Below, piece by piece: positions 4,885 through 40,490 of a stretch of DNA of 64,000 nucleotides (its first letter is position 1; the number at the start of each line of letters is the position of its first letter). The DNA is from an uncultured Candidatus Saccharibacteria bacterium (lineage in GTDB: Bacteria; Patescibacteriota; Minisyncoccia; Phycocordibacterales; UBA2100), in contig CAZELA010000002.1 of the NCBI GenBank assembly GCA_964512835.1, forward strand, positions 105,037-169,036, in the 5' to 3' direction. The notes beneath the pieces were generated by a model. It did no database searches, was not told the DNA's origin, and was given only the letters and a program-made list of their open reading frames with translations. Position numbers and translations under genes: made by a program.

Positions 4885-5105
4885 GCGCGTTTGCTATACT
4901 TCCGTCATGGACCCCTTGTACGGATTTCTGAAGACCATCCTCGATTTTCTCGTGCAGATCATCATGTTGTTCATCAACATGATCGTATACATACTGCACT
5001 TCATCGGTGATCTCATTCAGAGTCTCGCGAACTCGGTGTAGTTTTTACATGGGATTTTTCTCTCGTACCCGCACGCACGACGGGGAAACCGCGCACGAGG
5101 GGAGC

Positions 5106-6217: not shown

Positions 6218-6258
6218 TCAATTTTCACACACGTTTCGTGACCGCGAAACGCACCCGC

Positions 6259-10800: not shown

Positions 10801-13800
10801 TTGTACTGGGACAGTACGTATATTCCGACAGGGTGGACGTGCGTATCCTGCTTGCCTGCAGATTCGTTCTACCAGCGCTTCGTCATGGGTTCATCCACCG
10901 CCGGCACAAACGGCGGCGCAGCAACGACCGCTCACACTGCAACGGGCGCGGTTACAGCGTCTGCATCGTCACAGACGGTGGGAGCGAACAATCGGGCAAC
11001 TCCGGTCGTGGCGCACACGCACTCGTTTACGCCCGTCATCACTGCGACGAGTACGTTACCTGCGTACCGACAACTTGCGATCATCCAATCCAATACCGCA
11101 GGCGAGCCGTCTTCGATCCCGACCGGAGCGATTGCAATGTTCGATGCCGCAGTACCGAGCGGATGGACCGCGTACACTGCCCAGAACGGACGATACATTC
11201 GAGGTGAGAGCACTTCGACCGCGGGCACGACCGGCGGCAGCAACACGCACAAGCACGATGTTTCCGGAACGACCGGTGCGGCCGTTACTACCGTGAATGC
11301 GCAAAACCCGGGAACTACGATAGCCGTCGCCGCTGCTGCACATACGCACACGCTAACCGCAACAACGACGGGAAGCGTGAGCAACGAACCGCCGTATATT
11401 GAAGTCATTCTCGGTAAGTTGAATGCGACGTCGTCGCCGACGAATCAGATGATCGCAATGTGGAGCGGGGACCCGCCGACCGGATGGACAACGACATCGA
11501 GTTCCTCTGAGGCGATGGCGAACAAGTTCATAAAGGCGTCCACGACATACGGCGGAACAGGCGGCGCATTTACGCACAGTCACATCGATATGACCAACGT
11601 GCCGACCGGCGGTCCGAGCGGAACCGTCAACCGAAATAATGCCGCCGGTACAAACGTTGCGACTGCAGCACATACGCACAATGTGAACATAACGTCGTTC
11701 TCCACCGACTCACATCTGCCCCCGTATCGAACGGCAATCTTTGCAAAGCGAGTGGGCGGTGCCGCACCGAGTGGGCCGACTTTGTACGACGTATTATTTG
11801 CGAACGAACGAACGGGAACTTCGACACCGGCCTTTGAATTCAGTGCGACAGACCCGGACGGCGCTGACACGATCATCTATGAATTCCAATGGGACGACGA
11901 CAGCGACCTCGATACGTCACCGATCGGTGACAGAACGTCGGATGTCGAAACGGGATGCTCGCCGAACTGCTTCCAAAACCTGACAACGCCGATCAATACG
12001 TCACCGTTCACCGAGGGAAATCGTATCCGGTTCACGGTCCAGACACCGCTCGTCTCCGGTACCACATACTACTGGCGTGTACGTGCGCGCGAGAGCGGCG
12101 GTGGCGGCACGTGGGGCACGTGGGCAACAACGACGAGCTTCACCTATCTCGCTGGAACCGACCCGTCCCAGTGGTTCCAGACCACAGACGTCCAGTTTGA
12201 TTCAAACACAATGAGCGGGGCAGAAACGTTCGGGTCGGATGCCGCCCGGCTTGCGATATCGCCCTCGCAGGAAGCGCTTGTTGTCTACGGCGAGGGTACG
12301 GTACAGACGCCGCGATATCGTATATGGAACGGTACCTCGTGGAGCGCGGAAAGTTCCGCAAATTCCGTCGGCGGCGTCATTCAGTGGGTTGTAACCAAAG
12401 CCGCACCGACGAGGGATGAATATGTAAGCGGTACACAAGACAACGTCAACGACGTGAATGTGCAGATATTCAACGGGACCACCGATACGTGGGGATCGGT
12501 CACGGAAATGACGACGGGTGTCGCGAATAATGCCCGACGCGGCTTTGACCTGACTTACGAGTCACAGTCGGGCGACATTATGTCGGTGTACTGCGACGGC
12601 GATGCCGACCCCTCGTATCGTGTCTGGAACGGCTCGTCGTGGAGTGCGCCTCAGACGGTAAACATTACGAGCGCGAACAACTGCGAATGGATCTCGCTTG
12701 CCTCCGACCCGACGTCCGACGAGATCATCCTCGTAGAGCGCGATACGGGCGCGGGTTACGAAGCGCAGGTCTGGGACGGAAGCGCGTGGGGTAATGCCAA
12801 GACGCTCGGCTCCATGACCGATACCGCCCATGAAGGTATCGCAGTTAAATACGAAGAATCGGGTGATCAGGCGATGGTTGTCACCTCGAACGGAAACACA
12901 AGCGGTTTCGTGTGGACGACATGGAGCGGTACCTCGTGGGGTATCACGCAGACGCAGGGTCTCGGCGACGACTTTGAGTGGGGCAGACTTCGTGCGGACG
13001 ACGGATCCGACAAGCTCTCGCTCTGTTACATCGACGAAGACGCAGACGTCGGTACGCTCGTTTGGGACGGTAACGCATGGGATGCATTCACGACCGCGTT
13101 GGATGAACGCGACACGATCGGTAATGCTAAGACAGATCGCGCCGTAGACTGTGCGTACGAAACGACGACAGGACGCGACGGCTACGTTATGTTGCCGTAC
13201 TCCGACACGGCTGCGGCGCAGTACCAGTACTGGAACGGCACATCGTGGACCGCGAAGGCGGCGATCAGCACCATTCAGGACTCGTGGACCGTAAACGCCG
13301 TACGCACATCCGCAGGCGGCGTGCTCGCGTTTTTCCACGACGATGTCAATTCCCGCTATGACTTCTCCGACTGGAACGGAATTTCGTGGTCGACTGCAAC
13401 GACGCTTGAGACGGTGCCGTCCGCCACGACAACGCCGTTCTATCAGCCGATCGATATGGTCGCGCAGGTGTACGAATCGTCGTCGGGCACCATGACCGGC
13501 GGAACGATCGACTTCGACCAGGTACCGGGACGACAGACATGGGGCGAGATCTTGTGGCACACCACCGAGCCGTCGGGTACCGACGTGAAATTACAGGTCT
13601 TGTATGACAGCGGTAGCGGCTGCAGTACGCTCGTGCCGGATGTTGCACTCAATGCAAACCCGGGTCTCAACAGTATCGGCTATGACGCCACGACCTCGCC
13701 GATTAACATCTCCGGGCTCTCAACGTCGACATACAACCGCATTTGTGTTCGTGCGACGTTTACGACAACCAATACAAGTGCGCCGCAGCTTGATGACTGG

Positions 13801-16800
13801 TCGGTCACGTGGGAGCGACAGCCCTACCTGACGCAAACGCATTTCCGCTGGTATGCAAACGCGGCGACCTCGCTCACACCGTCGGACGCGTGGCCGTCGG
13901 GCGGTACCGATCTTGCGGAGGATGCAGCGGTTCCGACCATTTACTCACCGTCACCGGGTGATGTATTGCGTCTACGGATGAGTCTCTTGGAAGAGAACGT
14001 GTCGCTTTCGGCAGGGGATCTCTCGGTAAAACTGCAGTACGCGGAGGGGGCAACGTGCAGTGCCTCGCTTACGTGGCAGGATGTCGGCGCCATAGGATCG
14101 ACCACCGCAAAATGGCGCGGGTATGATAACGCTTCGCTTTCCGACGGAGCAACGCTCGCGTCTACGTTGCTCGCCGGGAGCGATACACGCGCGACCTACG
14201 AAGAAGCAAATGATTCGGCGGTAAACCCGTTCTCGGTTTCAGTCGGCAACGAACTTGAATATGACTGGGTGATTCAGCACAACGCGACCGGCAACACGAA
14301 CTATTGTTTCCGGGCGGTCACATCAACCGGCGTGACACTGAACGAATACGACCTGTATCCGAGTCTTGTCACCGACTCGCCGCCGGATGCACCGACGCTT
14401 GAGTCGCCGTTCAATAACGAATCACTCGCATCTACCACCCCGTGGTTCCAATTCGTCTCCGAAGATCCGGAGAACGATGATGTTACGTACCAGGTGCAGA
14501 TCGATGATGCGTCGGACTTCAGCTCCGTGAATATTGACCGCGATTCACAGAACAATTTTGCGGAATTCCAGAACCTGGTTACGCCGTCGGACAAGGACCC
14601 CTTCACGCCATCAAACTCTACGCGGTTCATACCGTCGTCATCGCTGTCGAACAATACGACCTACTACTGGCGCGTGCGCGCGAAAGACCGAACGAAGTCC
14701 GCCGAATGGAGCGCGTGGTCCGGAACGCAGAGCTTTACGGTCGACACGAGCGTCACCATTTCCACGTGGAAACAGACGACGCTCTATCAGTTCTCTACAG
14801 ACGATCACGAAGATACCGAGGCAACATCGACCGATTCAGTCGTTATCTCGAGCGGCTTCACGGTCGGTACGACCTCGAGTTCACTCATTGACTTCGATTG
14901 GCATACGACCGGAAACGCGTGGGGCTCCTTCAGTTTCAAACACTCCACGACCTCGAGCTCGATCCGATATCACATTGAATATTTCGACACCGACGTGTGG
15001 TCCCTCGTTCCGGATGCGGACTTGCCGGGAAATTCGACGGGCTTCGTCGGGACTACATCGCTCCTTTCAATGAGTCCGACGATCTATAACCAGATACGAA
15101 TCCGGGCCGACATGACGAACAGTGGTGCGTCGCCGCGACTCGATGACTGGACCATCGCCTGGGGCTATGCAGTTGAACAGCCGGCAATAACCACGTTGTT
15201 CGACAACGAAAAGACCGCTACAACAACGCCGTCATTCACATTCAAATCCGGCGATCCGCAGAGCGATGATCTGGTGTACGAAGTTTCCATATCGACGACG
15301 CAGGCATTTACGTCGTCTACGACGCGGCGCTCGAGTCTGAACACGGGCTTTTCGAACACGGCGTCATCGACCGACACAAGCCCGTTCACGCAGAACAATC
15401 TGATCAACTTTACGCTACAAGCCGCAGATGCGCTTACCAACGGTACGACCTACTGGTGGAAGGTTCGCGCAATCGATCCGACCGGCGGCAACGTGTGGTC
15501 TGTGTGGTCGGACCTGCGAAGCTTTACCGTCGATACGTCGGTTGCCGTATCAACGTGGTTCCAGACGACAGATGAACAGTTCCAGTCCGATACGCTCGAC
15601 AATATCGAAACGAGCGGCGGAAAGGCGCAGATTACCTCTACGATCAAGGAGGCATTCATGGTGTACTCCGAAGGTACTGTGCAGGTGCCGCGCTTCCGAT
15701 TGTGGAACGGTACCGTATGGGGAACCGAGCTCTCCGGTGTATCGGTGGGTGACACGATCCGTTTCGAGGAAGCGGCAGCAGCTCCGACGCGCGACGAATA
15801 CATCATCATGACCGAGGGCTCGACCGGCGTTGTCGATGCACAGGTCGTTGACGGCGCAACTGATACCGCCGGCAATATCGCGCGTATCAACACGGCCGTT
15901 TCGGATCCGACGCAGCGCGGATTCGATGTTGCGTACGAAACATCGTCGGGCGATGCGCTCGCGGTTGCGTGTTTCGGCACCGAAGCGACCTATCGCGTGT
16001 GGAACGGGTCGTCGTGGACGGCGACTTCGACGATCAATCTTGCGGTATCCACCAACTGCGAATGGGTCAAGCTGGTGTCAGATCCGACCTCCGACGAGAT
16101 CATCATGGTGGTGCGAGACTCGACGACTGGTGCAGTCGACTATGAGGCGCTTGTCTGGAACGGTTCTGCATGGGGAAATTCCATGACGATGGGTTCACAG
16201 GTTACCGTCGCAAACGAGGGTATCGCGGTAGAGTACGAAGAAAGCGGCGGTCAGGCGATTGTGGCGGTCTCGAACGGGGCAAACAACAACTTTATATGGA
16301 ATTCCTGGAACGGTTCCGCGTGGGCCGGTACTGCGACTGTGGCGATCGGAAACGACTTTGAAGGCGGTCGTATTGTGCGCGATGTGGGAACCGATCGAAT
16401 GACTATGTGTTACATCGATGCAGATTCCGACATCGGCTATGCAACCTGGGGCGGTTCCGCGTGGACCGGATCCACCGAAGTTGAAACACTTGGTAACAGT
16501 GTGAACGATCGACCGGTTTCATGCGAATACGAAACCGCAGGATCGCGCGACGGCTACACCATGATGGTGCACTCGGACACCACACAGGCGGAATATGAAT
16601 ATTGGAACGGCAGTGCCACGACCGCGCCTGCGGTCATCAACACGGTAACCGACTCCGCCGAAGTGCGTACGGCACGAACAGGAGACGGGTTGATTATGGC
16701 GTTCTTCTACGACGACGCAAACACTGAATACGACGTCACATACTGGAACGGAACGACGTGGTCGACCGAACAGCAGATCGAGCCGACCTCGATCACGACC

Positions 16801-19800
16801 GTTGCGCCGCCGACGATCCCGCTCGATATCGTCGCACGACGATATCCTGCGTTCGTTGCGGGATCAATCACGTCGACTGCCATCAATTTCAGTGACGGAA
16901 CCGGTCCGAAATGGGGTGCGATATCGTTCAGTAAAACAACACCGGGCGCGAGTACGGTGAAGCTGCAGGTCGAGTACTTTACCTCCACGAGTTCGTGGGC
17001 GCTCATTCCTGACAGTGTGATCCCCGGCAACTCGGTCGGTACGACAACGACGCTCGACATGTCGAACGTGAATCGAATCACCTATTCGACGATTCGCATG
17101 AAGGCAAACCTCGCTTGTGTTGCCGGTAATTGTCCGACACTCAATGATTGGACGCTCACGTGGGCACAAGGCATCAACGTCCAGGGTACCGTGCAGCAGT
17201 ATGATCAATCGACGAATGTTACGTCCGGTACTGTTGCGGTCGCGGTCAACGGCGTGAAGCAGACGGGGAAGACCGCCACGATCACCGGAAGCGGCACGTT
17301 CTCGATCGCGAACGTTACGGTATTCCAGGATGATATCGTGACCGTCTTTGTTGACGGGGCAGGAGACGCGAGCGAAGCAGTCGCGATCACCAAATACGAC
17401 GGCAACGGCGACATCACCGGCTTAAATCTGTACGAGCGACACCTCTCACTCGGTTCTGACGATAATCAAACGATCACCAACAACAACATTTCGCAGTTCG
17501 ATATGAGTGTCGCGGCAGATGACGACATCTTTTATGACGTGGATGCGGGGAATGACCTCACCGCCACTTCAACCGGTACGGTCTGGGATGTGGAACTCTG
17601 GGTTAAGGCAGGTACCACGTACCGACCCGATAGTGCCTCGAGCGGATTCGCGACAGTGTACGGACTCGAGAATAACGGCACGATCACGATGGACGGAAAC
17701 ACAATGACATTGTTGGGGTCGTGGGACAACAACGCGGTGTTCAATAAAGACGCCTCAACGGTCATCTTTGCCGCCACGTCGTCGACGCGTACGATCGACT
17801 CGACGGGGGCTTCGCTCTCGACGTTCAACCATGTGACGTTCGGTACCGCCTCCACTGCTGCTACGTGGACACTCACGACACCGCTCGATGTTGACGGCAA
17901 CCTCACGCTTAACTTCGGAACGCTCTCGCCCGCCACGACGGCTATCACAATCGGCGGCAATCTCTCAATCGGCGCATCGGGCACCTTTACAAAGGGAACC
18001 GCAACGACAACATTCGACGGATCATCGTCTGCCACGTGGACCGACAGCACGGCTGCAAAACAAGACATGGGATCGGTCGCAATCGACGGTACGACAAAGA
18101 CGGTTCAGCTTGGCTCCGCAGTGAAAGCTACGAATATCACGATCGGTTCCGACGATACGTTGAATGTGACTGCGGGTAACTACGGGATCGAAGTCACCGG
18201 TAATTGGACGAACAATAACTCGTTCGTTGCACAAAGCGGAACGGTCACGTTCAGCTCGACTGCCGTTGGTAAAACAATCGTTCCGGGTTCTTCGAGTTTC
18301 TATAACATTACATTTAACGGCATCGGCGGTAATTGGGCGTTCTCGCAGGCGGTGACCGCAGGGAATGACTTTACAATCGCGACCGGAACGGTGACTTTGC
18401 CGTCATCGACAACGACTATCACCGGTTCGTTCCTTGTGACCGGCGGTGCATTCCAGCCGAATAACGGCGCGGTCGTGTTTAATTCGTCGGCGACCGGCAA
18501 AACGGTGAACCCGAACACGTCGCCCTTCTACGACCTCACATTCTCGGGCACCGGTTCGTGGTCATTCGGTGTGACGAACGCTACGTCATCACGCCACGTC
18601 ATCATTACGCAGGGTGCGGTGACGATGCCGTCGGGAACGCTTGCGATAGGCGGGTCGTTCAGAAAGACGGGCGGATCATTCGCACACAACAACGGCATAC
18701 TCCGATTTACCGCGTCGAATGCGCAAACAGTGCAGTGGAGCGGGTCGGATGCGTATCAGACATACTTTAGCGGGACTGCCGGTTCATGGTCATTCCTCGA
18801 TGCCTCGGCTACCAGTACGAATAATGTGCGATTCGAGGCGGGAACATCGACCCTTCCGTCGGGAACATTTGCGGTCGGCGGGTCGTGGATAGCGACCAAC
18901 GGCGGATTCACCCATAACAGCGGCACGGTTAAGTTCACTGCCACATCGACCGCAAAGACGATATCGACCGGCACATCCATATTCTCGAGTATGTGGTTCG
19001 ACGGGGTAGGCGGCGGCTGGACGCTCTCGGGTAGCACAACTGCGGCGGGCGCCTTTACGCTCTCGAATGCGACCGCATTCACCATGTCTCCGAATTTTAC
19101 GCTTGCGGTCGGCGGCGCGTTCACCAATGCGGTCGGCGGGTCGGCGACCACATGGGCCACATCAACACTTTCGCTCTACTCCGGCACGAATTACTCTATT
19201 AATACAAAGACGACAGGGGGTGATGTGTACGGAACACTCTCGCTTGGCGCAAATACGAACATTCGATCATGGAACTCGACCGCGGCTACGACGACGGTCG
19301 CCTCAACCGCATCGGTATACTCGCAAGACAACTCCACCATCGGTGGGACACCGGTTGACGGCGATCTCTATATATATGGAGCATTTACAAGCTCGGCGAA
19401 TGAATACTGGAGTTACGCGACCGATTTCGACGGCACCGCGCTCGGCGTTTCATCGCGCCAGGTGAATGTGCGTATCGCAACTTCGAGTACTATTGCGTAC
19501 AACACGGGAACGCTGCAGATCCTGGGTACCTCGACCGCGACGACGACCATCCAAAATCAGGGAACCGGTCGCTACGCATTCGCGATCTCCGGCGGCACAT
19601 TGCAGGCTCAGTATTACTCGGTAAAGAACGGTGACGTAAACGGGTTCTCGATCTCGGGCTCGACGGCGATTTCGTCACTTGCAGACGGCGACTTCGAGCT
19701 GGGAGTGAACGGCGGGACCGCACTCAAAGTTACAAGTACCGTCATTGATGCGAACAGTGCGCTCCAGATTCAGCGTGTGAGATTCGCAACCTCGACCGGC

Positions 19801-22800
19801 ATCACGACGGGATTCAACGTGACCGAAACGGGTACACCAAGTTCGTACTGGTGGTTCCGCAATCACTACGGCAATTACGCCGGCGAGAGTTTTGATTCGG
19901 ATCCGGGGCCGAATAGCGGTAATCCCGGTTATGTACGATGGGACGACTCGGGCTTTACGATCTCTGTTTCGGGAAATGTGTACTCGGACGAAGGCAGTAC
20001 CGCGATCGGTTCACCGGCCTGCGACGGCGTCACCGCGAACGTGCGCATTGTGGTGAACTTCGGATCGTTCGCGTCGTCGACCCCGTGCAATGCCTCGACG
20101 GGTGCGTACACAATTTCCGGCATTACCTTCAGCGGCGACGCGGTCCTCACGACGTATTTGAATACGAACGGCGGCGCACGCGCAGTAACGGTTACGCGAA
20201 CGGCAACCGCGAACGTGACCGGTCTCGATCTCTACCAAAACGAAGTCATCGTGCGACACGAGGACGTTGCTCCGCTTACGATCGCGAACATGGCGGTGTA
20301 CGACTCGGGTGATGACAGCGATATCCCGTTCACTGCGGCAACAGGCACACCCGACACACTCACGGTCTCGCCCGGCAATGAATTGCATGTCTGGACCGGT
20401 AAGACATTCGTGCCGGGAGGCAACATGTCGCTGACCAGCGGGGGAGCGAACGGCTCGAAGGATGGTCGGCTCCACATTGCGACCTCGTCTGTATTCACCG
20501 CAACGGGCGCAGAATCACACTCGATCGGCGGCGGACTTGCGATCCAATCAGGGGCAACATTTACGACCGCAAGCTCGACGTTTACGTTCACGGCGACCAC
20601 GACGAACAAGTCGATCTATGCGGTCGCTCCGATATCGTTCTGGAACACGACATTCAACGGTTCCGGCGGCTCATGGTCGTTTGATAACGGATTCTCGACG
20701 ACGACCGTGCTCAATACCATGACGTTCACTGCGGGAACGCTGACCGGCACGGGAGACCTAACGCTCACGCAGGGCACGCTTACGGGATCAGGCACCGTGA
20801 ACATGACGGGCGGCACCATTACACTCCACGGTACCGGTGTGTTCGGTAACAACAATAACTGGCAGTTCTCGACGCTCTCGCTCGGTAACGGCACAAACGC
20901 AGGGTCGTCGGTGAAAACAGGAACCGGCACAACGACCGTTACCGGTGTGCTCCGCATCAATACATTGCAGCGACTGTATGCCGCAACGTCGTCGTGGGTC
21001 TTGTCGGGATCGGGAACACCGTTTGCGGTTGCCTCCGGTGCAACGTTTACCGCGCAAGTGGCGCCGTTCACATTCTCGGGAACCGGCGCAACGACGGTCG
21101 CGGATCAGGCATATGCGGCGCTCTTGCTCACACCGAGCGCAGCGGGTACTCCTACATACACGCTCCGTGGCGGTACATTGTCGGCAACCTCACTCGCCGT
21201 AGGCAGTACGAATCCTGTGGCCGTCGACGTAAATACGAATGACCCGTCACTTTCGATTTCGGGCACGGTGACGATCGGATCCGGCAGTACACTTATTGCA
21301 TCGAATGTCGGCGCGCTCGATGTAGGCGGTAGCTGGTCGAACCTTGGAACATTCACTTCCTCCGCGGGCACGGTTAACTTCAACTCGTCAGATACAGGCG
21401 AGACGATTGATCCGGGTCAGTCGAGCTTTGCGACACTTTCATTCAACGGTGTCGGCGGTGGGTGGACGATACTTCAGAATGCTACATCCACGGGCGACAC
21501 GTTGCTGGTAAATGCCTCGGCATTTACGCTATCTCCGAACAAGACCCTTGCAGTGGGCGGCACCTTCACGAACTCAGTCGGCGGGTCGGCGACCACGTGG
21601 GCAACATCGACCCTCTCGCTCTATTCGGGCACAAGCTACTCTATTAATACAAAGTCGGCGGGGAATGATCTGTACGGTACGCTCCTGATCGGTGCAAACA
21701 CCGATGTGCGCATGTGGAATTCGAGTGCGGCCACTACTACGGTGAACTCGACCGGCTCGCTCTACTCGCAGGATCACGCGGCGGTCGACGGAAGTCTTTA
21801 TATCTGGGGCGAATATGTACGGTCGACCGGCAGCGACTATTGGAGCTATCTGACCGACTTCGACGGCACATCGCTTGCCACCTCGACGCCGCGTGGCGTA
21901 TCGGTCCTGATCGCAACATCGAGCTCGATCACGCTCTCCGGCGGCTCACTCGATATTACAGGTACAACAACAGCGACTACCACAGTTCAAAATCAGGGAA
22001 CGGGCCGCTACGCGTTTACTGTTTCCGGCGGTACGTTCAATGCGCAGTACTACCAGATCCGAAACACTGACCTCAACGGCCTTTCGTTCACCGGTTCACC
22101 GACCATTACCACGCTGTCCGACGGTGATCTGCAGCTCGGTGTAAACGGGGGTAGCACGATCACGGTTGCAGGAACGGTGATCGATGCGAATCCGCTGAAG
22201 ATCTTCCAGCGCAATAATTTCTCGACCACGACCGCGAGCGGTATTACGAGCGGCTTTAACGTGAAGGCGACGGGATCTTCCGGCTCTTCGTGGAAGTTCA
22301 ACCTGCACTACGGCGCATTCGGCGGCGAAGCGTACGATTCCGATCCGGACGGCGACCCGGGGTACCTGCGATGGGATGACAGCGCAAGTTCGATCTCTGT
22401 TTCGGGCAATGTGTACTCCGACGAAGGTTCGACGGTCTCCGGTGCATGTAACGGCTCCACGCAGGTGGTGCGCCTCAAGGTGCAGGGTGCCGGTACGTAT
22501 ACATCGTCGTGCAGCTCTGCAACGGGCGCATACTCGATCTCGGGAGTCGCGTTCAACCCGGGCGACACGCTGACCGTCTTCTTGGACAACGCGACGGGCA
22601 CGCGCCGTGCGGCAAACGTATCGATCGATCCGATCAGTTCGATATCGAACATGCACCTGTACGAAAATCGCGTAATCGTTCGTCACGAAGATACAAGCGC
22701 GATCACTATCGCAAAAATGGCGCAGTACGATGCCGACCAGGATAGTGACATTCCGTTCAATGCGACCGATGCGGCGACCGATACGCTCGTTGCGACCGGC

Positions 22801-25800
22801 ACAAAACTTATCGTATTTACCGGAAAAACATTCACGCCGGGCGGCAACATTACGCTGATCGGGGGCGCTGCAAATGCCTATGACGCAACGCTCGAGGTTG
22901 CAACGAGCTCAAGCCTGATCGCTGCAAATAATCAGTACTACTCGATCGGCGGGTCGCTGATCATCGGTAGCAGTGCGACGTTCACATCTGCCAGCTCGAC
23001 GGTCACCATGACCGCGACGACGACCGGTAAGACAATCACGCTCAATAATTCGACGCTCTACAATATCGTGTTCAGCGGAACCGGCGGCAACTGGGCATTC
23101 AGCGGCTCAACCATGACTGCGCTCGGCGACTTCCTCGTTACCGCCGGTACCGTTAACCTGCCGACCGCAACGTCAACGGTCGCGGGCTCGTTCCTCAATT
23201 CAGGCGGCACACTGCAGCACAACAACGGAACGCTCTACCTTACCGCGACCTCAACCGGCAAGGTGGTGCGACTGAATAATTCAAATCTCTACAATATCGA
23301 ATTCAACGGCACCGGCGGTGCATGGTCCTTTGCCGATGCGTCCGCCACGTCGTCGAACAATGTCACGATAACCGCCGGCACCGTGACCGCACCTACGACC
23401 ATGCTTACGGTCGGCGGATCATTCCAGAATTTCGGCACGTACACCGCAGGCGTCGGCACAACGAAGTTCACAGCGAACGCGACGGGTAAGTCGATCCGAT
23501 TCGGAGGTTCTGCGCTCTACAACATTCTCGTTGACGGCGTCGGCGGCGGCTGGACCATTACGGATACGAGCGCGACGGCGACACGCGACTTCACGATCCT
23601 GCACGGTACGACAACGCTACCGACGGGCACGTTCACGGTCGGCGGTTCCTGGACCACGACGGGCGCCGGCTTTACCGCGGCAACGACGAGTACGGTGCTC
23701 TTCAACGCGACCACGACCGGGAAGACCATCGATCCGGGCATCTCGACGTTCGGCGGCGTTACATTCAATAGTTCGGCCGGCGGCTGGACGGTATCACAGA
23801 GCGCGACGTCGACAGGTGACACAACGATCACTGCCGCGACAAGCTTTACGCTCTCGCCGAATAAGACGCTTGCGGTCGGGGGCACGTTCACGAACTCAGT
23901 CGGCGGCGCAGCGACCACCTGGGCGACCTCGACGCTCTATCTGTACTCGGGCACGAATTACTCTATTAATACAAAGTCGGCAGGGAACGATGTGTACGGG
24001 ACGCTCTTCGTGGGAGCAAACACCGATGTGCGTATGTGGAAGTCGACCGCCGCGACCACGACCGTTACCTCGACCGGTTCGCTGTACTCGCAGGACAATG
24101 CCGCAATCAACGGTACGGCTGTGGCGGGCAATTTGTACATCTGGGGAGAGTATGTTCGATCGTCAGGCAACGACTATTGGAGTTATGCGACCGACTTCGA
24201 CGGAGCGGCGCTCGGCGGCTCGTCGCGTATCGCAAACGTACGTATTGCAACGTCGAGCTCGGTTACGATTTCGGGTGGCTCGCTCGAAATAATCGGCGCT
24301 GCAGGTGCCACGACCACAATTCAAAACCAGGGTACAGGCAGCTATGCATTCACGGTTTCCGGCGGCACGTTCAACGCAACCCGCTACCAGATCCGTAATA
24401 CCGACGTGAACGGGCTCAACTTCACCGGTACGCCGGCGATCACGTCGCTCGATCTCGGTGACTTCCAGCTTGGAGTGAACGGCGGCAGCATGATATCGGT
24501 CAGCGGCGCAGCCATCGATGCCAACGCGTCGAAGCAGATCAGTTATGTGCAGTTCGCCACGTCAACCGGCATCGCATCCGGCTACAACGTGTCGCTCACG
24601 AGTTCATCGACTGCTGCATGGACGTTCCTGTCGCACTACGGAAACTATGCCGGTGAATCCTATGACTACGACGGAGCGGATACGTGCGGCAAGATTCGCT
24701 GGAGCGACAGCTCGTGTCTCTTTGTGAACCAGGGTCACTACCGATGGCGAAACGATGACGGCGGCGTCGGCGCTCCGACGACGGAATGGTACAACGCGTC
24801 ATGGTCGAAGCGACAGAAGGTTGTCGTCTCGAACTCGACGGCGTCCGTGCTCACGAATCAGGCGGTGCAGATCGTCGTGCCGTACGACGCAGACATGCAG
24901 AGCGACTTCGACGACCTACGGTTTACGGACTCGACCGGTACGACGTCGATCTCTTACTGGATCGAAAACACGAACGCATCGGCCTCATCGACGGTGTGGG
25001 TGAAGCTCCCGTCCGTTCCGGCAAACGGATCATCGGTCATCTATATGTATTACGGTAACTCCGGCGCGTCGGACGCAAGTAACGGCACAAACACGTTTAA
25101 GACGTTCGAAGATTTTGAATCGGGATCCGTGTCGGGTTATTCAGGCGACACGTCGCTCTTCAGCGTCGGTACTACATACCACCACACGCACACCTACGGG
25201 CTCGACGCCGGAACGAACTTCAATGACTTTACGACAAGCGGGTTGTATAAGACCGGCTCGCTGAGCGCGCAGGGCGATACGATCCACTTCTATCAGTATG
25301 TGGATGACTCGCGTGACGACGAGCCGTGTACGCTCTTCGGCGTGGGCGGTTCGGCAAATAACTATGCGGTATGTCTCGATCACTATCCGGTGGAGAGGAT
25401 TTCCATCGCAAAGAACGTAACGAGAAACGACGAAAGCGGTACGGTGCTCGCATCGACCACAGTCTCGTATTCGACCGGCTGGTACGACGTACGGGTGGAT
25501 TGGCTCACCAACAACTCTATTAATGTGACCGTATTGAATGACGACGGATCGGCATTTGCCACACTGAATACGACCGATTCAAGTCACACGAGCGGTGGGT
25601 ACGGGTTCTCGTACTGGGCGATGAAGGGCGGGTGGGACTTCTTCTCGGTTCGACCGTACGTATCGGCGACGCCGACGTATGTATTTGGTACCGAACAAAT
25701 TAGCGACGGCGCATCGTGGCTTGCCGCCGAGGACACCGTCACGTCCGGTATATCAACAGGACAGAATGTGCGCGTGCGATTCACGGTACAGAACACGGGG

Positions 25801-27003
25801 GCACCGCTCTCGAGTAAGCAGTTCAAATTGCAGTTCGCCGCCAAGAACGCATTGAACTGCGAATCAACGACCGGATTCAGTGATGTTCCGACGCAAAGCG
25901 GCGGCAGCTGCACCGGCAACGCTGCGTGTATGGCACCGTCGTCGCAGTTCGTTGATCAGACCTCGATCTCTGACCTCTTGTCTCGCCCGGCGAGCATGAC
26001 CTTTACGCAGGGCAAGATCGTCGAGGATACGTCGGCAACGACGAATGCGATCAATGTCGGCACGAACGAGGCAACGGAAGTCGAATTCAACTTCCAGCTC
26101 ACGACGAACGCCGTTGCCAATTCGTACTGTTTCCGCACCGCTCGAACCGATACGGGTGCACTCGACAGCTACGACCATGTGGCAGAGATCGGCCTCACGT
26201 TCCCGCCGACGATCTCGAATTTCAACTTCCCGCTCATCTACTACGCAACCAGTTCCGGTATCGCGCTGACAGAAGGTACGACCACGCTTGTATACGCAAC
26301 GGGAACGGTGACCGACTTCAACGGGTATGCCGATATCGTGCTCGCCTCGTCAACGATCTACCGATCCGGCGTCGGCTCGACATGTTCGGCGAATGACAAC
26401 AACTGCTACAAGGTTCCTTCGTGTGCACTCTCGCTCTGCTCCGGCAATTCGTGCACCATCACGTGCTCCGCAAATGTGCAGTATTTTGCAGAGCCGACCG
26501 ATGCACAAAGCCCCTCGTACAGTGCAGAAAGCTGGCTCGCGAGCGTGCGCATCCAGGATGCCGCAGGACTCTCGGCGACCGCGACGACGAGCGCGGAAAT
26601 GGGTACTATGCGAGGACTCTCCGTGAATACATCGATCGCATACGATGACGACACGATACCGGGTATGGATCCGGGTGCGAACACCGGTTCCCGCCTTGCT
26701 ACTACAACGGTCACAAACACCGGCAATTCGCCGATCGATATCCGTCTGTCCGGCGAAAATGTAGGCTCAATCCCGGTGAACAGTCAGAAGTATTCGACGA
26801 GCACGTTTACGTACGCCTCGTGCTCGGTCTGTGCGTTGCTCTCCGGCCCGTCGACTCCTGTCGGTGCAGGGCTTAATATCCCGAAAGCTACGGCCTCGAC
26901 GACGCCGACGACAAGCGACGTGTACTGGGGTATCTCGATCCCGATTCCCACCGCAACAGGGCTCCAGCAGGGAACTAACTACTTTGAAGCGGGAGCTCCG
27001 TGA
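7894..27003 (+). CDS. Giant (6369 aa) N-terminally anchored, multi-domain repeat-rich cell-surface protein (adhesin-like)
   Basis: One uninterrupted 19,110-nt ORF. It starts with an N-terminal signal-anchor (VAAALFAAAIVAYALY) and a Pro/Thr/Ala/Glu-rich linker. Next come three HxH...LPPY tail-collar-like repeats (about 10.9-11.8 kb) and FN3-like modules ending in TTYYWRVRA. Two copies follow of a region of about 570 aa with WNG[ST]SW blades. A long array of Thr/Gly/Ser beta-helix-like units of about 55 aa sits inside three near-identical 2.3-2.4-kb tandem repeats. The C-terminal region has a motif set (HYRWRNDDG..., LRFTD..G, VWVKLP, YMYYGN) that resembles DUF2341 (from memory), then a LamG/concanavalin-like region. 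The tail carries SWLASVRIQD....VYWGISIP, shared with the ORF at 32239..34140. Confidence 0.85.
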   Translation: MRLSHLNVRRNRVAAALFAAAIVAYALYTTGHYVTAYRETKSAHVFPTTATATGWDTPEAALSQELGANAPFESFDTTNSAHLSIAGNTPVVETPNIPPSAPDSTEQQPVENATTTPEAAPSGSEAPTAEPEQVPPAVVPEQTPSAPVETPSAVPAETPAATPAETPTTPATEAPPVETSVSKIFHTITSSLVKTAYATTTESALPDDTAGGGAETSSMTEDVPTCFLQQKECHTIQLDGFTVSGEITETNFEKANLNFSFAAGIGETELVDDKLEVRYYHAGKWREVGEIFLNKQLSNASNGGYFTATLDDVASWEEMSDIKVVIEYDRNNDSAVDLYLDAVWIDAQYRELLSDVVTDEDDIPELPENVVLELNEGGAVGELVLSDGTHVSFPYTDDLTDSLVIRADKVTYSRAGDVVYASLTNTSGVADSVRLYTAFPRGFGSVVDISELKKNVPTTTETPQYQEVTYLCDAGWKSLEVNATSTDTVASSSPAASYRCDATDEERVCSVLNDDKTNCSVDRVQVGSESSVTYSSGWVPLISIDGQTDQDSLSEFLPPLYRVLSKTTETIDILPGQTVYVRLRLESNETDALQFTLLAQGAAISGDLQSELLKSERELKGGEPLAKKKGNSRMFGRAEFDGDELPAFKFQFKSKRNFVSRGLNVLLGRGNEFGVSGVTFLREDGTEVTLPVSVEYGEDGQWTLEIKTHPREFRPGKYMADIVMHEGTDEFTERVEFYWGVLAMNINQSSYRPGETVPIALAALDDMGDTICDADIRLTVTDPTGTSTPVSVEQSGLCGDNNIIDVADYLAVYTTSLPGSYTAVATEYDDRGLIVHRVYDTFEVRAEVLFTIRRAGMTRIYPVAAYTMDLELTSSADFAGEFVESVPVDFDVLTSDGAEIRMYGGAKNLVWPVDLKAGETMKVSYTYDAPDISPYMYLLGPAQVQGASGLPFEEPRQWKIASDATGNMLLYWDSTYIPTGWTCVSCLPADSFYQRFVMGSSTAGTNGGAATTAHTATGAVTASASSQTVGANNRATPVVAHTHSFTPVITATSTLPAYRQLAIIQSNTAGEPSSIPTGAIAMFDAAVPSGWTAYTAQNGRYIRGESTSTAGTTGGSNTHKHDVSGTTGAAVTTVNAQNPGTTIAVAAAAHTHTLTATTTGSVSNEPPYIEVILGKLNATSSPTNQMIAMWSGDPPTGWTTTSSSSEAMANKFIKASTTYGGTGGAFTHSHIDMTNVPTGGPSGTVNRNNAAGTNVATAAHTHNVNITSFSTDSHLPPYRTAIFAKRVGGAAPSGPTLYDVLFANERTGTSTPAFEFSATDPDGADTIIYEFQWDDDSDLDTSPIGDRTSDVETGCSPNCFQNLTTPINTSPFTEGNRIRFTVQTPLVSGTTYYWRVRARESGGGGTWGTWATTTSFTYLAGTDPSQWFQTTDVQFDSNTMSGAETFGSDAARLAISPSQEALVVYGEGTVQTPRYRIWNGTSWSAESSANSVGGVIQWVVTKAAPTRDEYVSGTQDNVNDVNVQIFNGTTDTWGSVTEMTTGVANNARRGFDLTYESQSGDIMSVYCDGDADPSYRVWNGSSWSAPQTVNITSANNCEWISLASDPTSDEIILVERDTGAGYEAQVWDGSAWGNAKTLGSMTDTAHEGIAVKYEESGDQAMVVTSNGNTSGFVWTTWSGTSWGITQTQGLGDDFEWGRLRADDGSDKLSLCYIDEDADVGTLVWDGNAWDAFTTALDERDTIGNAKTDRAVDCAYETTTGRDGYVMLPYSDTAAAQYQYWNGTSWTAKAAISTIQDSWTVNAVRTSAGGVLAFFHDDVNSRYDFSDWNGISWSTATTLETVPSATTTPFYQPIDMVAQVYESSSGTMTGGTIDFDQVPGRQTWGEILWHTTEPSGTDVKLQVLYDSGSGCSTLVPDVALNANPGLNSIGYDATTSPINISGLSTSTYNRICVRATFTTTNTSAPQLDDWSVTWERQPYLTQTHFRWYANAATSLTPSDAWPSGGTDLAEDAAVPTIYSPSPGDVLRLRMSLLEENVSLSAGDLSVKLQYAEGATCSASLTWQDVGAIGSTTAKWRGYDNASLSDGATLASTLLAGSDTRATYEEANDSAVNPFSVSVGNELEYDWVIQHNATGNTNYCFRAVTSTGVTLNEYDLYPSLVTDSPPDAPTLESPFNNESLASTTPWFQFVSEDPENDDVTYQVQIDDASDFSSVNIDRDSQNNFAEFQNLVTPSDKDPFTPSNSTRFIPSSSLSNNTTYYWRVRAKDRTKSAEWSAWSGTQSFTVDTSVTISTWKQTTLYQFSTDDHEDTEATSTDSVVISSGFTVGTTSSSLIDFDWHTTGNAWGSFSFKHSTTSSSIRYHIEYFDTDVWSLVPDADLPGNSTGFVGTTSLLSMSPTIYNQIRIRADMTNSGASPRLDDWTIAWGYAVEQPAITTLFDNEKTATTTPSFTFKSGDPQSDDLVYEVSISTTQAFTSSTTRRSSLNTGFSNTASSTDTSPFTQNNLINFTLQAADALTNGTTYWWKVRAIDPTGGNVWSVWSDLRSFTVDTSVAVSTWFQTTDEQFQSDTLDNIETSGGKAQITSTIKEAFMVYSEGTVQVPRFRLWNGTVWGTELSGVSVGDTIRFEEAAAAPTRDEYIIMTEGSTGVVDAQVVDGATDTAGNIARINTAVSDPTQRGFDVAYETSSGDALAVACFGTEATYRVWNGSSWTATSTINLAVSTNCEWVKLVSDPTSDEIIMVVRDSTTGAVDYEALVWNGSAWGNSMTMGSQVTVANEGIAVEYEESGGQAIVAVSNGANNNFIWNSWNGSAWAGTATVAIGNDFEGGRIVRDVGTDRMTMCYIDADSDIGYATWGGSAWTGSTEVETLGNSVNDRPVSCEYETAGSRDGYTMMVHSDTTQAEYEYWNGSATTAPAVINTVTDSAEVRTARTGDGLIMAFFYDDANTEYDVTYWNGTTWSTEQQIEPTSITTVAPPTIPLDIVARRYPAFVAGSITSTAINFSDGTGPKWGAISFSKTTPGASTVKLQVEYFTSTSSWALIPDSVIPGNSVGTTTTLDMSNVNRITYSTIRMKANLACVAGNCPTLNDWTLTWAQGINVQGTVQQYDQSTNVTSGTVAVAVNGVKQTGKTATITGSGTFSIANVTVFQDDIVTVFVDGAGDASEAVAITKYDGNGDITGLNLYERHLSLGSDDNQTITNNNISQFDMSVAADDDIFYDVDAGNDLTATSTGTVWDVELWVKAGTTYRPDSASSGFATVYGLENNGTITMDGNTMTLLGSWDNNAVFNKDASTVIFAATSSTRTIDSTGASLSTFNHVTFGTASTAATWTLTTPLDVDGNLTLNFGTLSPATTAITIGGNLSIGASGTFTKGTATTTFDGSSSATWTDSTAAKQDMGSVAIDGTTKTVQLGSAVKATNITIGSDDTLNVTAGNYGIEVTGNWTNNNSFVAQSGTVTFSSTAVGKTIVPGSSSFYNITFNGIGGNWAFSQAVTAGNDFTIATGTVTLPSSTTTITGSFLVTGGAFQPNNGAVVFNSSATGKTVNPNTSPFYDLTFSGTGSWSFGVTNATSSRHVIITQGAVTMPSGTLAIGGSFRKTGGSFAHNNGILRFTASNAQTVQWSGSDAYQTYFSGTAGSWSFLDASATSTNNVRFEAGTSTLPSGTFAVGGSWIATNGGFTHNSGTVKFTATSTAKTISTGTSIFSSMWFDGVGGGWTLSGSTTAAGAFTLSNATAFTMSPNFTLAVGGAFTNAVGGSATTWATSTLSLYSGTNYSINTKTTGGDVYGTLSLGANTNIRSWNSTAATTTVASTASVYSQDNSTIGGTPVDGDLYIYGAFTSSANEYWSYATDFDGTALGVSSRQVNVRIATSSTIAYNTGTLQILGTSTATTTIQNQGTGRYAFAISGGTLQAQYYSVKNGDVNGFSISGSTAISSLADGDFELGVNGGTALKVTSTVIDANSALQIQRVRFATSTGITTGFNVTETGTPSSYWWFRNHYGNYAGESFDSDPGPNSGNPGYVRWDDSGFTISVSGNVYSDEGSTAIGSPACDGVTANVRIVVNFGSFASSTPCNASTGAYTISGITFSGDAVLTTYLNTNGGARAVTVTRTATANVTGLDLYQNEVIVRHEDVAPLTIANMAVYDSGDDSDIPFTAATGTPDTLTVSPGNELHVWTGKTFVPGGNMSLTSGGANGSKDGRLHIATSSVFTATGAESHSIGGGLAIQSGATFTTASSTFTFTATTTNKSIYAVAPISFWNTTFNGSGGSWSFDNGFSTTTVLNTMTFTAGTLTGTGDLTLTQGTLTGSGTVNMTGGTITLHGTGVFGNNNNWQFSTLSLGNGTNAGSSVKTGTGTTTVTGVLRINTLQRLYAATSSWVLSGSGTPFAVASGATFTAQVAPFTFSGTGATTVADQAYAALLLTPSAAGTPTYTLRGGTLSATSLAVGSTNPVAVDVNTNDPSLSISGTVTIGSGSTLIASNVGALDVGGSWSNLGTFTSSAGTVNFNSSDTGETIDPGQSSFATLSFNGVGGGWTILQNATSTGDTLLVNASAFTLSPNKTLAVGGTFTNSVGGSATTWATSTLSLYSGTSYSINTKSAGNDLYGTLLIGANTDVRMWNSSAATTTVNSTGSLYSQDHAAVDGSLYIWGEYVRSTGSDYWSYLTDFDGTSLATSTPRGVSVLIATSSSITLSGGSLDITGTTTATTTVQNQGTGRYAFTVSGGTFNAQYYQIRNTDLNGLSFTGSPTITTLSDGDLQLGVNGGSTITVAGTVIDANPLKIFQRNNFSTTTASGITSGFNVKATGSSGSSWKFNLHYGAFGGEAYDSDPDGDPGYLRWDDSASSISVSGNVYSDEGSTVSGACNGSTQVVRLKVQGAGTYTSSCSSATGAYSISGVAFNPGDTLTVFLDNATGTRRAANVSIDPISSISNMHLYENRVIVRHEDTSAITIAKMAQYDADQDSDIPFNATDAATDTLVATGTKLIVFTGKTFTPGGNITLIGGAANAYDATLEVATSSSLIAANNQYYSIGGSLIIGSSATFTSASSTVTMTATTTGKTITLNNSTLYNIVFSGTGGNWAFSGSTMTALGDFLVTAGTVNLPTATSTVAGSFLNSGGTLQHNNGTLYLTATSTGKVVRLNNSNLYNIEFNGTGGAWSFADASATSSNNVTITAGTVTAPTTMLTVGGSFQNFGTYTAGVGTTKFTANATGKSIRFGGSALYNILVDGVGGGWTITDTSATATRDFTILHGTTTLPTGTFTVGGSWTTTGAGFTAATTSTVLFNATTTGKTIDPGISTFGGVTFNSSAGGWTVSQSATSTGDTTITAATSFTLSPNKTLAVGGTFTNSVGGAATTWATSTLYLYSGTNYSINTKSAGNDVYGTLFVGANTDVRMWKSTAATTTVTSTGSLYSQDNAAINGTAVAGNLYIWGEYVRSSGNDYWSYATDFDGAALGGSSRIANVRIATSSSVTISGGSLEIIGAAGATTTIQNQGTGSYAFTVSGGTFNATRYQIRNTDVNGLNFTGTPAITSLDLGDFQLGVNGGSMISVSGAAIDANASKQISYVQFATSTGIASGYNVSLTSSSTAAWTFLSHYGNYAGESYDYDGADTCGKIRWSDSSCLFVNQGHYRWRNDDGGVGAPTTEWYNASWSKRQKVVVSNSTASVLTNQAVQIVVPYDADMQSDFDDLRFTDSTGTTSISYWIENTNASASSTVWVKLPSVPANGSSVIYMYYGNSGASDASNGTNTFKTFEDFESGSVSGYSGDTSLFSVGTTYHHTHTYGLDAGTNFNDFTTSGLYKTGSLSAQGDTIHFYQYVDDSRDDEPCTLFGVGGSANNYAVCLDHYPVERISIAKNVTRNDESGTVLASTTVSYSTGWYDVRVDWLTNNSINVTVLNDDGSAFATLNTTDSSHTSGGYGFSYWAMKGGWDFFSVRPYVSATPTYVFGTEQISDGASWLAAEDTVTSGISTGQNVRVRFTVQNTGAPLSSKQFKLQFAAKNALNCESTTGFSDVPTQSGGSCTGNAACMAPSSQFVDQTSISDLLSRPASMTFTQGKIVEDTSATTNAINVGTNEATEVEFNFQLTTNAVANSYCFRTARTDTGALDSYDHVAEIGLTFPPTISNFNFPLIYYATSSGIALTEGTTTLVYATGTVTDFNGYADIVLASSTIYRSGVGSTCSANDNNCYKVPSCALSLCSGNSCTITCSANVQYFAEPTDAQSPSYSAESWLASVRIQDAAGLSATATTSAEMGTMRGLSVNTSIAYDDDTIPGMDPGANTGSRLATTTVTNTGNSPIDIRLSGENVGSIPVNSQKYSTSTFTYASCSVCALLSGPSTPVGAGLNIPKATASTTPTTSDVYWGISIPIPTATGLQQGTNYFEAGAP
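12160..13880. repeat. Intragenic duplicated module, copy 1 (about 570 aa, repeated WNG[ST]SW blades, beta-propeller-like)
   Basis: The protein segment from TDPSQWFQTTDVQFDSN to WNGISWSTATT has 8 or more W-N-G-[ST]-[SAT]-W motifs spaced about 55-75 aa apart. Copy 2 is at 15550..17160 with the same blade order. Confidence 0.6.
15550..17160. repeat. Intragenic duplicated module, copy 2 (paralogous to 12160..13880)
   Basis: VSTWFQTTDEQFQSD....RFRLWNGTVWGTE...RVWNGSSWTAT...LVWNGSAWGNS...IWNSWNGSAWAG...TWGGSAWTGS...YWNGTTWSTE is collinear with copy 1 at the protein level. The nucleotide sequences have diverged. Confidence 0.6.
18900..24720. repeat. Three near-identical tandem long repeats (units about 2.45 kb, 2.32 kb, then a truncated third) inside the giant gene
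   Basis: The anchor string ctattaatacaaag recurs at 19196, 21641 and 23963 (spacings 2445 and 2322 nt). Each copy has long flanking runs of near-identical nucleotides (e.g. WATSTLSLYSGT.YSINTK...YWSY.TDFDGT...RIATSS...IQNQGTG.YAF..SGGT..AQYY...N.D.NG). Identity is high enough to be recombinogenic. Confidence 0.75.
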
Positions 27004-29597: not shown

Positions 29598-30944
29598 ATG
29601 GCAAAAACTTCCATTCGTACCGACAAGATGTTCATTACCTACAACAAGGGTAAATCGAACGAATTCAAGGCGCTGCAAGACGTGAACGTCGAGATCTATC
29701 CGCGCGAATACATCATTCTGTTCGGTCCGTCCGGCTGCGGAAAGTCGACACTTTTGTACACCATGCTCGGCGGTATTCCGCCGTCCGACGGTCACATGTT
29801 CGTGCAGAACGAAGACATTTATGCGTATACGCCCGAGGAGTTGAACCGCTATCAGCAGACGACGATCGGCATCGTGTATCAGCAGTTCAACCTGATTTCG
29901 TCGCTCTCCGTTATCGATAACGTCGCGCTACCCATGCTCTTTTTGGGCATACAACCTGCCGAACGACTGGCTCGTGCGGCGCAGCTATTGCGTCGATTCG
30001 GAGTGCCGGAGCGCGTCGAGAATAAACTTCCTGTGGAAATGTCCGGCGGTCAGCAGCAGCGTGTTGCCGTTGCGCGCGCACTCATCAACGACCCGGAAAT
30101 TCTGCTCGCCGACGAACCGGTGGGTAACCTGGACTCCATTTCCGCAGAGCACGTTATGGATTCGTTCCAAGAGATCAATGAGCGCGACCGCAAAACCGTG
30201 ATCCTCGTTACGCACGATGCGAAGTACCTTCCGTATGCGCACCGGGTGTTCTACATGCGCGACGGCAAACTACGCCGCATCGTCGTGAACCCGCAGAAAG
30301 AGCAGGTCAAACGAACGAAGCCCGGCGAGACCATCGTGACCGAGATCGAGCAGCTTGCACGCATGTATCCGTATGCGGAACCGGTGGAGTTGAAGGTGAA
30401 GAGTGTCGTGAACTTCGTTACGCAGTCGATCGGATTCAGCCAGGTGCAACGCCTCGAAGAAGCAATTCTGTATGTGCTGAAGGGCACCATGAACGAACAG
30501 ATGTTCTCGGAGTTTTTGGGGAAGCCGTTCCATCTGGGCGGCGTCGGTATTCCGCCCGAAGAAGTGGAGCCGATGGCAAGCAGGGTGTTCAACCTTATCC
30601 GCTATTCGATCGATGTGCAGCGATTCCGAAGCGAGACCCAGAGCGACAACATGTTTATGCACCAACAAAAGTTCGTTGAGCGACTGCTCACGTACCTGAA
30701 AGAAGAAGTCGGGTTTCAGTGTTCGCAGGAGCAGCTACGCACGCTCCGCGAAGCGGTTGCCGACCGCGTAGGCGGCATTACCGATGCCGAACAGTTCAGT
30801 GAAAGGCTTTTGTTGAACAACGAAATGGGCGGCGCAGGATTCGAGGAACGAATGGGATACAAAATAGCAGTGCACATGGAAAAACTTATCGCCCAAGGCG
30901 GGTACGTCATTCTCCCGAACGAACTGGAGGGAGGCCACACTTGA
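29598..30944 (+). CDS. ABC transporter ATP-binding protein (MacB/LolD/FtsE-type) with an atypical C-terminal extension of about 220 aa
   Basis: Walker A is GPSGCGKST, the Q-loop is VYQQFNL, the signature is MSGGQQQRVAVARAL, Walker B is ILLADEP and the H-loop is VTHD. The ABC domain ends near residue 230. A further domain of about 220 aa with no motif I recognise follows. Confidence 0.9.
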   Translation: MAKTSIRTDKMFITYNKGKSNEFKALQDVNVEIYPREYIILFGPSGCGKSTLLYTMLGGIPPSDGHMFVQNEDIYAYTPEELNRYQQTTIGIVYQQFNLISSLSVIDNVALPMLFLGIQPAERLARAAQLLRRFGVPERVENKLPVEMSGGQQQRVAVARALINDPEILLADEPVGNLDSISAEHVMDSFQEINERDRKTVILVTHDAKYLPYAHRVFYMRDGKLRRIVVNPQKEQVKRTKPGETIVTEIEQLARMYPYAEPVELKVKSVVNFVTQSIGFSQVQRLEEAILYVLKGTMNEQMFSEFLGKPFHLGGVGIPPEEVEPMASRVFNLIRYSIDVQRFRSETQSDNMFMHQQKFVERLLTYLKEEVGFQCSQEQLRTLREAVADRVGGITDAEQFSERLLLNNEMGGAGFEERMGYKIAVHMEKLIAQGGYVILPNELEGGHT

Positions 30945-30945
30945 T

Positions 30946-40486: not shown

Positions 40487-40490
40487 TCAC

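Follow-up and report, generated by a model that had tools for sequence, protein, structure and literature searches.

An apparently ancient triplicated beta-helix module with episodically converted centres in a putative giant surface protein of Patescibacteria

Results and Discussion

Architecture of a giant gene with three core modules

We examined a 64,000-nt stretch of DNA (the window; positions 105,037 to 169,036 of contig CAZELA010000002.1) in which one gene of 19.1 kb encodes a giant protein with an internal threefold repeat (Table 1). An original prediction, made from the letters alone, had described three near-identical tandem repeats of 2.3–2.4 kb within a single coding sequence, and the single open reading frame (ORF) was borne out. 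The anchor 14-mer on which that prediction relied, CTATTAATACAAAG, has exactly three occurrences (19196, 21641 and 23963), with 0 expected by chance, and a repeat search of the window recovered a three-copy family with the same start-to-start spacings of 2445 and 2322 nt. These correspond to offsets of 815 and 774 aa at the protein level, where the best 300-aa blocks were 57–69% identical, and the predicted conserved motifs YWSY.TDFDG and IQNQGTG.YAF were present in all three copies. Tandem Repeats Finder, with a period limit of 500, returned nothing at the 2.3–2.4 kb scale of the repeat.

The copy number and the period therefore stood, but the extent of the third copy did not. Unit alignment and a hidden Markov model (HMM) built from it put the shared element at a core of ~365 aa, and only ~1.1 kb of each 2.3–2.4 kb period is common to all three copies. 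Core C has no tail and runs straight into a DUF2341 domain, so that the protein has three cores but two full units; the layout of core, DUF2341 and C-terminus is common to many homologues. Tails A and B share 40% aa identity and showed pure positional orthology. Instead of the predicted 14 or so sub-repeats of ~55 aa per unit, we found an internal period of 76–77 aa, in 3–4 copies each, confined to short segments that precede cores A and C.

Thr, Ser, Gly and Ala together make up 45% of the giant protein. Its N-terminus, read from the translation, has a basic segment followed by a hydrophobic segment that appears to be a signal anchor. A Pfam scan of the whole protein matched Ig_Rha78A_N, MG2 (weakly) and DUF2341 only; it found no beta-helix family at E ≤0.01, no autotransporter C-terminal beta-barrel and no N-terminal two-partner secretion (TPS) domain.

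Table 1. Features of the giant gene in the window, and identical tracts between cores of its relatives.
Feature	Location	Strand	Basis or remark
Giant ORF, 6369 aa	7894..27003	+	ORF call; 19.1 kb
Older internal duplication, first copy, aa 1282-1975	11737..13818	+	self-blastp, offset ~1126 aa, 42-50% identity
Older internal duplication, second copy, aa 2428-3092	15175..17169	+	self-blastp, offset ~1126 aa, 42-50% identity
Core A, aa 3657-4024, predicted beta-helix module copy 1	18862..19965	+	HMM of the three cores; alignment; positional clade in 46/47 genomes
Putative relic gene-conversion tract in core A, anchor 14-mer 19196	19054..19320	+	protein identities; Ks 1.06-1.18
Tail A, aa 4025-4472, 448 aa, predicted beta-sandwich insert then more beta-helix	19966..21309	+	duplicated once (tail B); fold inferred from unit B model
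Core B, aa 4473-4835, predicted beta-helix module copy 2	21310..22398	+	sequence used for structure model
Homologous tract in core B, anchor 21641	21499..21765	+	protein identities; Ks
Tail B, aa 4836-5244, 409 aa	22399..23625	+	three 76-77-aa sub-repeats at its end lead into core C
Core C, aa 5245-5611, predicted beta-helix module copy 3	23626..24726	+	no tail; DUF2341 directly after; alignment and core HMM
Homologous tract in core C, anchor 23963	23821..24087	+	protein identities; Ks
DUF2341 domain, aa 5671-5745	24904..25128	+	Pfam PF10102, E 4.9e-25
Perfectly identical tract, L004	cores B-C		473 nt
Perfectly identical tract, L006	cores B-C		467 nt
Perfectly identical tract, L009	cores A-B		447 nt
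Perfectly identical tract, L024	cores B-C		255 nt
Perfectly identical tract, L081	cores B-C		711 nt

The three copies are strongly diverged within the window

The copies proved far from near-identical. In a sensitive self-blastn, copies A and B were 65.6% identical over 944 nt, B and C 72.1% over 820 nt, and A and C 69.1% over 640 nt; the longest exact runs shared by these pairs measured 20, 23 and 27 nt, respectively. When every offset between 1500 and 5200 was scanned, no exact repeat of at least 40 nt turned up in the giant gene, at the unit offsets or elsewhere in that range, and the long stretches of identical nucleotides described earlier are thus missing. The longest shared run of 27 nt also lies below any usual read or k-mer, which removes the assembly hazard that had been predicted.

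Over the aligned units (Nei-Gojobori), the proportion of synonymous differences (pS) between paralogues was 0.65–0.69 and their synonymous divergence (Ks) 1.5–1.9. Where two copies have the same amino acid, the codon was identical at 45–51% of sites, compared with 40–42% expected from the codon usage of the gene. Synonymous sites are therefore near-random between the copies, which excludes the recent expansion proposed in the original prediction. These comparisons indicate that the triplication is ancient, not recent.

Copy number and architecture are conserved among relatives

Relatives were collected by scanning one genome per GTDB species with the core alignment, which gave 75 loci, almost all in metagenome-assembled genomes (MAGs) of Patescibacteria. 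A homologue search with unit B returned 52 proteins, and those with names came nearly all from Candidatus Kaiserbacteria, Minisyncoccia, Pacebacteria or Peregrinibacteria. Homologues of ~1200 aa may be fragments or short proteins in their own right. One JGI fragment, P0043 (a cluster of 12 member sequences, aligned to window 24034-27000), matched the giant protein over its C-terminal 989 aa at 100% identity, which indicates that the same organism has been sampled in other public metagenomes.

Locus L001 was colinear with window positions 11318-32399 at 92.1% nt identity, with zero indels over 15.7 kb inside the giant gene. The cores of L001 were 88–93% identical to those of the window and the remaining gene 91–94%, contrary to the claim that conservation is much higher in the repeats than elsewhere in the gene. 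Nonsynonymous divergence (Ka, 0.01–0.03) was much lower than Ks (0.18–0.63) between orthologues, and the giant gene is thus under purifying selection. L002, at 68–70% nt identity, remained colinear through all three units.

Among 56 genome loci that carried three or more cores, 54 had exactly three. Spacings of 2.35–2.50 kb and 2.25–2.36 kb characterised 47 of these 54, and in the canonical loci that reach far enough the ORF ended ~5.6 kb past the start of the second core. A metagenome scan added 13 more canonical three-core loci. The constant spacing across 47 genomes and 13 metagenome loci makes three cores a fixed feature of the family; copy number appears to be fixed at three, with a triplication that would predate the whole sampled clade. 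The recA-driven, stepwise changes in copy number and the polymorphism among orthologues that had been anticipated were seen neither in these loci nor in the indel-free L001 alignment. Two loci (L046 and L061) had four cores, and in seven others (L056, L068, L074, L085, L087, L095 and L099) the first spacing was 3.3–4.7 kb. Such non-canonical layouts in distant relatives imply that, over long evolutionary times, the architecture did change, for the most part upstream of core B.

We also weighed whether the repeat structure could be an artefact of a chimeric or duplicated contig. The window is probably metagenome-assembled, and the gene is long and repetitive. The units are, however, too divergent to confuse an assembler, the architecture recurs in 60 independent assemblies, the L001 alignment is gapless and P0043 matches the C-terminus exactly, and we give this explanation almost no credence.

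Taxon labels among the relatives were discordant. Many MAG records, including L001, L002 and L005, are labelled Candidatus Saccharibacteria, while the protein names of the closest homologues are Kaiserbacteria, Minisyncoccia and Paceibacterota, and three loci lie in bins labelled Neomarinimicrobiota (L013), Planctomycetota (L050) and Gammaproteobacteria (L061). These labels probably reflect mislabelling or binning contamination.

Core edges keep positional orthology and core centres do not

The history of the three cores was followed in 47 genomes (the window and 46 relatives), with 141 cores in all. For 128 of the 141 whole cores, the nearest neighbour was the core at the same position in another genome. 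A two-core fragment from another organism (P0001) behaved in the same way, its first core pairing with core A (bootstrap 90) and its second with core B (bootstrap 100). In whole-core trees, however, the positions were not monophyletic, and paralogue distances ranged from 0.29 to 1.27. We had considered these trees as evidence against an ancient triplication, an argument that was dropped because splitting the core into centre and edge resolves the conflict.

Quartet site patterns (two genomes by two positions) separated the two signals. Per genome pair, a mean of 40 sites grouped the copies by genome and 43 by position, against 16 in the homoplasy control, independently of the difference in G+C content (GC). 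The two classes were spatially segregated (runs test, p about 0), with position-grouping sites at both edges of the core and genome-grouping sites in the middle. The C-terminal 78 residues of the core formed positional clades of 46, 47 and 47 of the 47 genomes, and none of the 141 cores had its nearest neighbour in its own genome. In the central ~240 residues, by contrast, the largest pure positional clade had 13 members; within-genome paralogues stood at a distance of 0.71, orthologues at 0.77 and cross-position pairs at 0.82. The tails served as an internal control and gave 6.9 genome-grouping sites, close to the 5.8 of the homoplasy control, against 29.9 position-grouping sites. Parallel amino-acid drift driven by GC was rejected as a source of the genome-grouping sites, since the excess was independent of GC difference and did not extend to the tails of these genes.

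Positional clades at the core edge, mixing in the centre and clean tails together argue that the triplication is older than the clade and that concerted evolution acts in the core centres only. The centres thus appear to be homogenised occasionally by intragenic gene conversion, often enough to blur their deep phylogeny.

A putative relic tract in core A of the window

In the core centre, the distance between the window and L002 was 0.72 at position 1, compared with 0.24 and 0.30 at positions 2 and 3, and L002 core 1 (L002:7580-8680) lay near L007 core 1 (distance 0.36). The asymmetry at position 1 led us to a putative relic conversion tract in core A (Table 1). Residues ~65–153 of core A were 81–82% identical to cores B and C, compared with 50–55% to the L002 orthologue (L002_1) and 57–61% to the L007 orthologue, although these two orthologues are 75–79% identical to each other in the tract. 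At the C-terminal edge, the window, L002 and L007 copies showed the expected species relationships. A block of core A therefore seems to have been replaced by B/C-type sequence in the window lineage.

Both the anchor 14-mer and the longest runs common to the copies fall inside the tract. Ks between paralogues within it was 1.0–1.2, compared with 1.7–1.9 to the L002 orthologues and 1.4 to saturation in the rest of the core; Ks to L001 (0.34–0.59) is about one third of the paralogue value. Since the split from L001 the quartet patterns held 1 genome-grouping site and 333 position-grouping sites, and conversion has been absent from the window lineage since before that split. The core A event thus appears real but old. 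We propose that ~270 nt of core A were overwritten by B/C-type sequence after the L002 split and long before the L001 split, which would have left a block of 72–77% nt identity (as much as 81% across 50 codons) and a few shared runs of 14–27 nt. This remnant would be the source of the repeat signal in the original prediction.

Fresh tracts in relatives

Perfectly identical tracts between two cores were found in five relatives (Table 1), and an independent repeat search recovered four of them (L004, L006, L009 and L024) at 92–100% identity over 300 nt. Inside the tracts Ks was 0, while the flanking C-terminal edge was saturated. L004 and L006 are only 63–70% identical to each other, so that at least those two events must have been independent. 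Best-window identities between cores formed a graded series of 100%, 93%, 91%, 86% (L001 B–C) and 83% (window B–C), as expected of episodic conversion followed by decay. Every genome with a fresh tract still has its three units, normally spaced, which indicates conversion without unequal crossing-over. Concerted evolution, one of the processes named in the original prediction, is therefore supported in the family, in the core centres only; in the window it is not ongoing and the last event is old.

The remainder of that proposal, a very recent expansion or ongoing homogenisation with recA-dependent turnover of ~800-aa units and a likely assembly error, fared worse. The repeats are tandem and in frame and share an exact 14-mer, and the 255–711-nt identical tracts of the relatives make recombination between units possible in the family. 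Against this stand the 65–72% nt identity, the 27-nt longest run and the Ks of 1.5–1.9 in the window, the near absence of genome-grouping sites since the L001 split, the three copies in nearly all genome loci, the orthology of the positions over 47 genomes, the indel-free L001 gene and the normal spacing of three units in the very relatives that carry fresh tracts. We regard it as very improbable and, for the window, as refuted by the evidence at hand. The original prediction was thus mostly wrong for the window genome and yet partly supported, in that it names a process operating in the family.

A different alternative is that no conversion took place in the window lineage and that purifying selection, with parallel change or co-evolution of three modules binding the same ligand, made the core A block resemble cores B and C. 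The tract does hold those residues that are most conserved in the family, among them the invariant G107, K115 and Y122, and its paralogue Ks of ~1.0–1.2 means that the window carries no direct nucleotide trace. Purifying selection cannot, however, bring core A nearer to B and C than to orthologues that have remained so alike between themselves. Furthermore, the boundaries of the signal are sharp, tracts with Ks of 0 occupy the same region in five relatives, and Ks in the window tract is below both the rest of the core and the Ks to L002. We consider this alternative unlikely.

Weighing the evidence

Taken together, the data are in our judgement best explained, with good confidence, by an ancient triplicated beta-helix module in a conserved giant surface protein of Patescibacteria (candidate phyla radiation, CPR; Paceibacteria/Kaiserbacteria-like) whose core centres have been converted episodically. 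The core edges and the tails would have diverged independently since the triplication. The architecture, its age, its mosaic history and the predicted fold (below) are documented by the analyses presented here.

Several points weigh against this explanation. The cores are covered by no Pfam family, and a Foldseek search of the PDB with the whole-unit model gave no significant match. The trees are neighbour-joining trees on simple corrected distances rather than maximum-likelihood trees. Core number is one, two or four in a few distant relatives, and a search of metagenomes for contigs of the same species gave a best match of 74% identity, so that rare within-population copy-number variants are possible. 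The conversion in the window is read from a mosaic at the protein level, where tract Ks (~1.0–1.2) is only moderately below that of the rest of the core, and selection-driven parallel change in the window lineage keeps a small share of the probability. Perfect identity of tracts in MAGs could also be slightly inflated if an assembler merged near-identical paths.

Concerted evolution by gene conversion is known for tufA/tufB in enterobacteria and for rRNA operons. As in those systems, paralogues within a genome are nearer than orthologues, here in the core centres and with clustered boundaries, tracts are mosaic, and recent events show synonymous identity; the last was found in five relatives, and the window keeps a weak trace of it (Ks 1.0–1.2 compared with 1.4 to saturation). 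Unlike those systems, conversion here would be intragenic and episodic and affect ~90–240 codons in the middle of a module. The family thus offers a clean natural case of conversion limited to a sub-region of intragenic repeats, with the tails as an internal negative control and events of all ages.

The class suggested by the original interpretation is that of the Periscope Proteins (SasG/Aap, Rib/alpha C, Sgo_0707 SHIRT and CdrA), which have highly identical tandem DNA repeats whose number varies even between similar strains (PMC8201768). The giant protein resembles them as a large, presumably surface-located protein with tandem in-frame structural modules. It differs in the identity of its repeats (65–72% nt), in a unit that is ~800 aa long instead of a single small domain, and in a number fixed at three over ~60 loci; neither high identity of repeat DNA nor variation in repeat number between close relatives was found. 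A flag of hyper-recent repeats or assembly hazard can therefore be lifted from this gene.

Closer kin are found within the phylum. Patescibacteria encode proteins of >4000 aa with DUF2341 and/or FhaB domains that are presumed to act in adhesion or host interaction; full-length homologues of these giant proteins were not found, and rapid domain reshuffling was suggested (PMC11809585). Similar functional guesses have been made for giant genes in other phyla (bioRxiv 10.1101/2023.11.21.568195). The giant protein described here shares the phylum, the size (6369 aa) and DUF2341 (PF10102, E 4.9e-25) with that group, but keeps one architecture across 47 species genomes. A widely conserved three-module family contrasts with the published view, and the gene is best filed among the giant DUF2341 surface proteins of Patescibacteria, as a subfamily with unusually stable architecture and partial concerted evolution.

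Predicted fold and possible function

Structure prediction agreed with the beta-helix-like module of the original prediction. For the core, the predicted fold is a right-handed, pectate-lyase-like beta-helix, which matches solved beta-helices in three dimensions. In the model of the whole unit (pLDDT 88), the helix of the core is followed by a compact beta-sandwich (unit residues ~360–440) and then by more beta-helix. Invariant D, E, R and K columns are present in the core alignment, among them D183, D185, E340 and D345.

The fold matches that of the beta-helix adhesin passengers Fap2, Vag8, pertactin, Ag43, EtpA and FHA, at a sequence identity of 10–13%. Unlike these adhesins, the giant protein has by Pfam neither an autotransporter barrel nor a TPS domain, and an N-terminal hydrophobic anchor is apparent; the lineage of the organism is generally regarded as having no outer membrane. 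The core fold also matches phage tailspikes, which we group here with capsule depolymerases and with enzymes of the pectate-lyase-like kind. Tailspikes assemble as homotrimers from one beta-helix chain; the giant protein would instead carry three helices in one chain.

Fold and gene context suggest a fibre tethered to the membrane and exposed outside the cell, which would bind, or perhaps cleave, a glycan on the surface of a host, prey or partner, much as other beta-helix adhesins and tailspikes do. The family is a reasonable candidate for part of the host-attachment apparatus of Paceibacteria and is nothing surprising in kind: an ordinary adhesin-like giant protein with a mildly interesting evolutionary mode. 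One further idea, to which we give little weight, is that the three cores act on one target, as a trivalent binder or a single-chain mimic of a trimeric tailspike, and that conversion, limited to their central face, keeps their binding surfaces in step. If so, a change of specificity in one core could spread to the others, and an episymbiont could switch or track the surface of its host without a change in protein length.

Neighbouring genes and other features of the window

The giant gene is closely preceded by a signal peptidase I gene (5007-5639) and closely followed by a MacB-type ABC transporter (29598-32154; ATPase and FtsX/MacB permease); both could be partners in its export or processing. 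Small neighbouring proteins with weak cohesin and dockerin matches are encoded at 6061-7743, 35235-36371 and 38293-39078, and a protein with an fn3 domain is also among the neighbours. The cohesin and dockerin matches hint at a cohesin-dockerin-type surface assembly around two giant genes.

The second of these is an ORF of 3735 aa (40407-51614, plus strand), which holds the truly high-identity repeats of the window. Over ~250 nt they reach 92–93% nt identity; their exact runs measure 173, 155 and 104 nt, and the protein repeats are up to 85% identical. Recent conversion or expansion, or an assembly problem, is plausible there. Pfam gave a weak match of this ORF to the Peptidase_G2 intramolecular-chaperone cleavage domain.

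Upstream of the cores, the giant gene also contains a duplication of ~700 aa (Table 1) that is separate from the core triplication and older. It is rich in ~100-aa sub-repeats of the 'YRVWNGSSW' type and has Ig_Rha78A_N-like domains at its flanks. Three repeats of ~110 aa at aa 977-1293 (window ~10822-11772) each carry His-x-His motifs (AHTHSF, HKHDV, AHTHTL, HSHIDM and AHTHNV). A Pfam scan of these repeats gave no match, and we presume that they resemble the metal-binding repeats of phage tail-collar and tail-fibre proteins.

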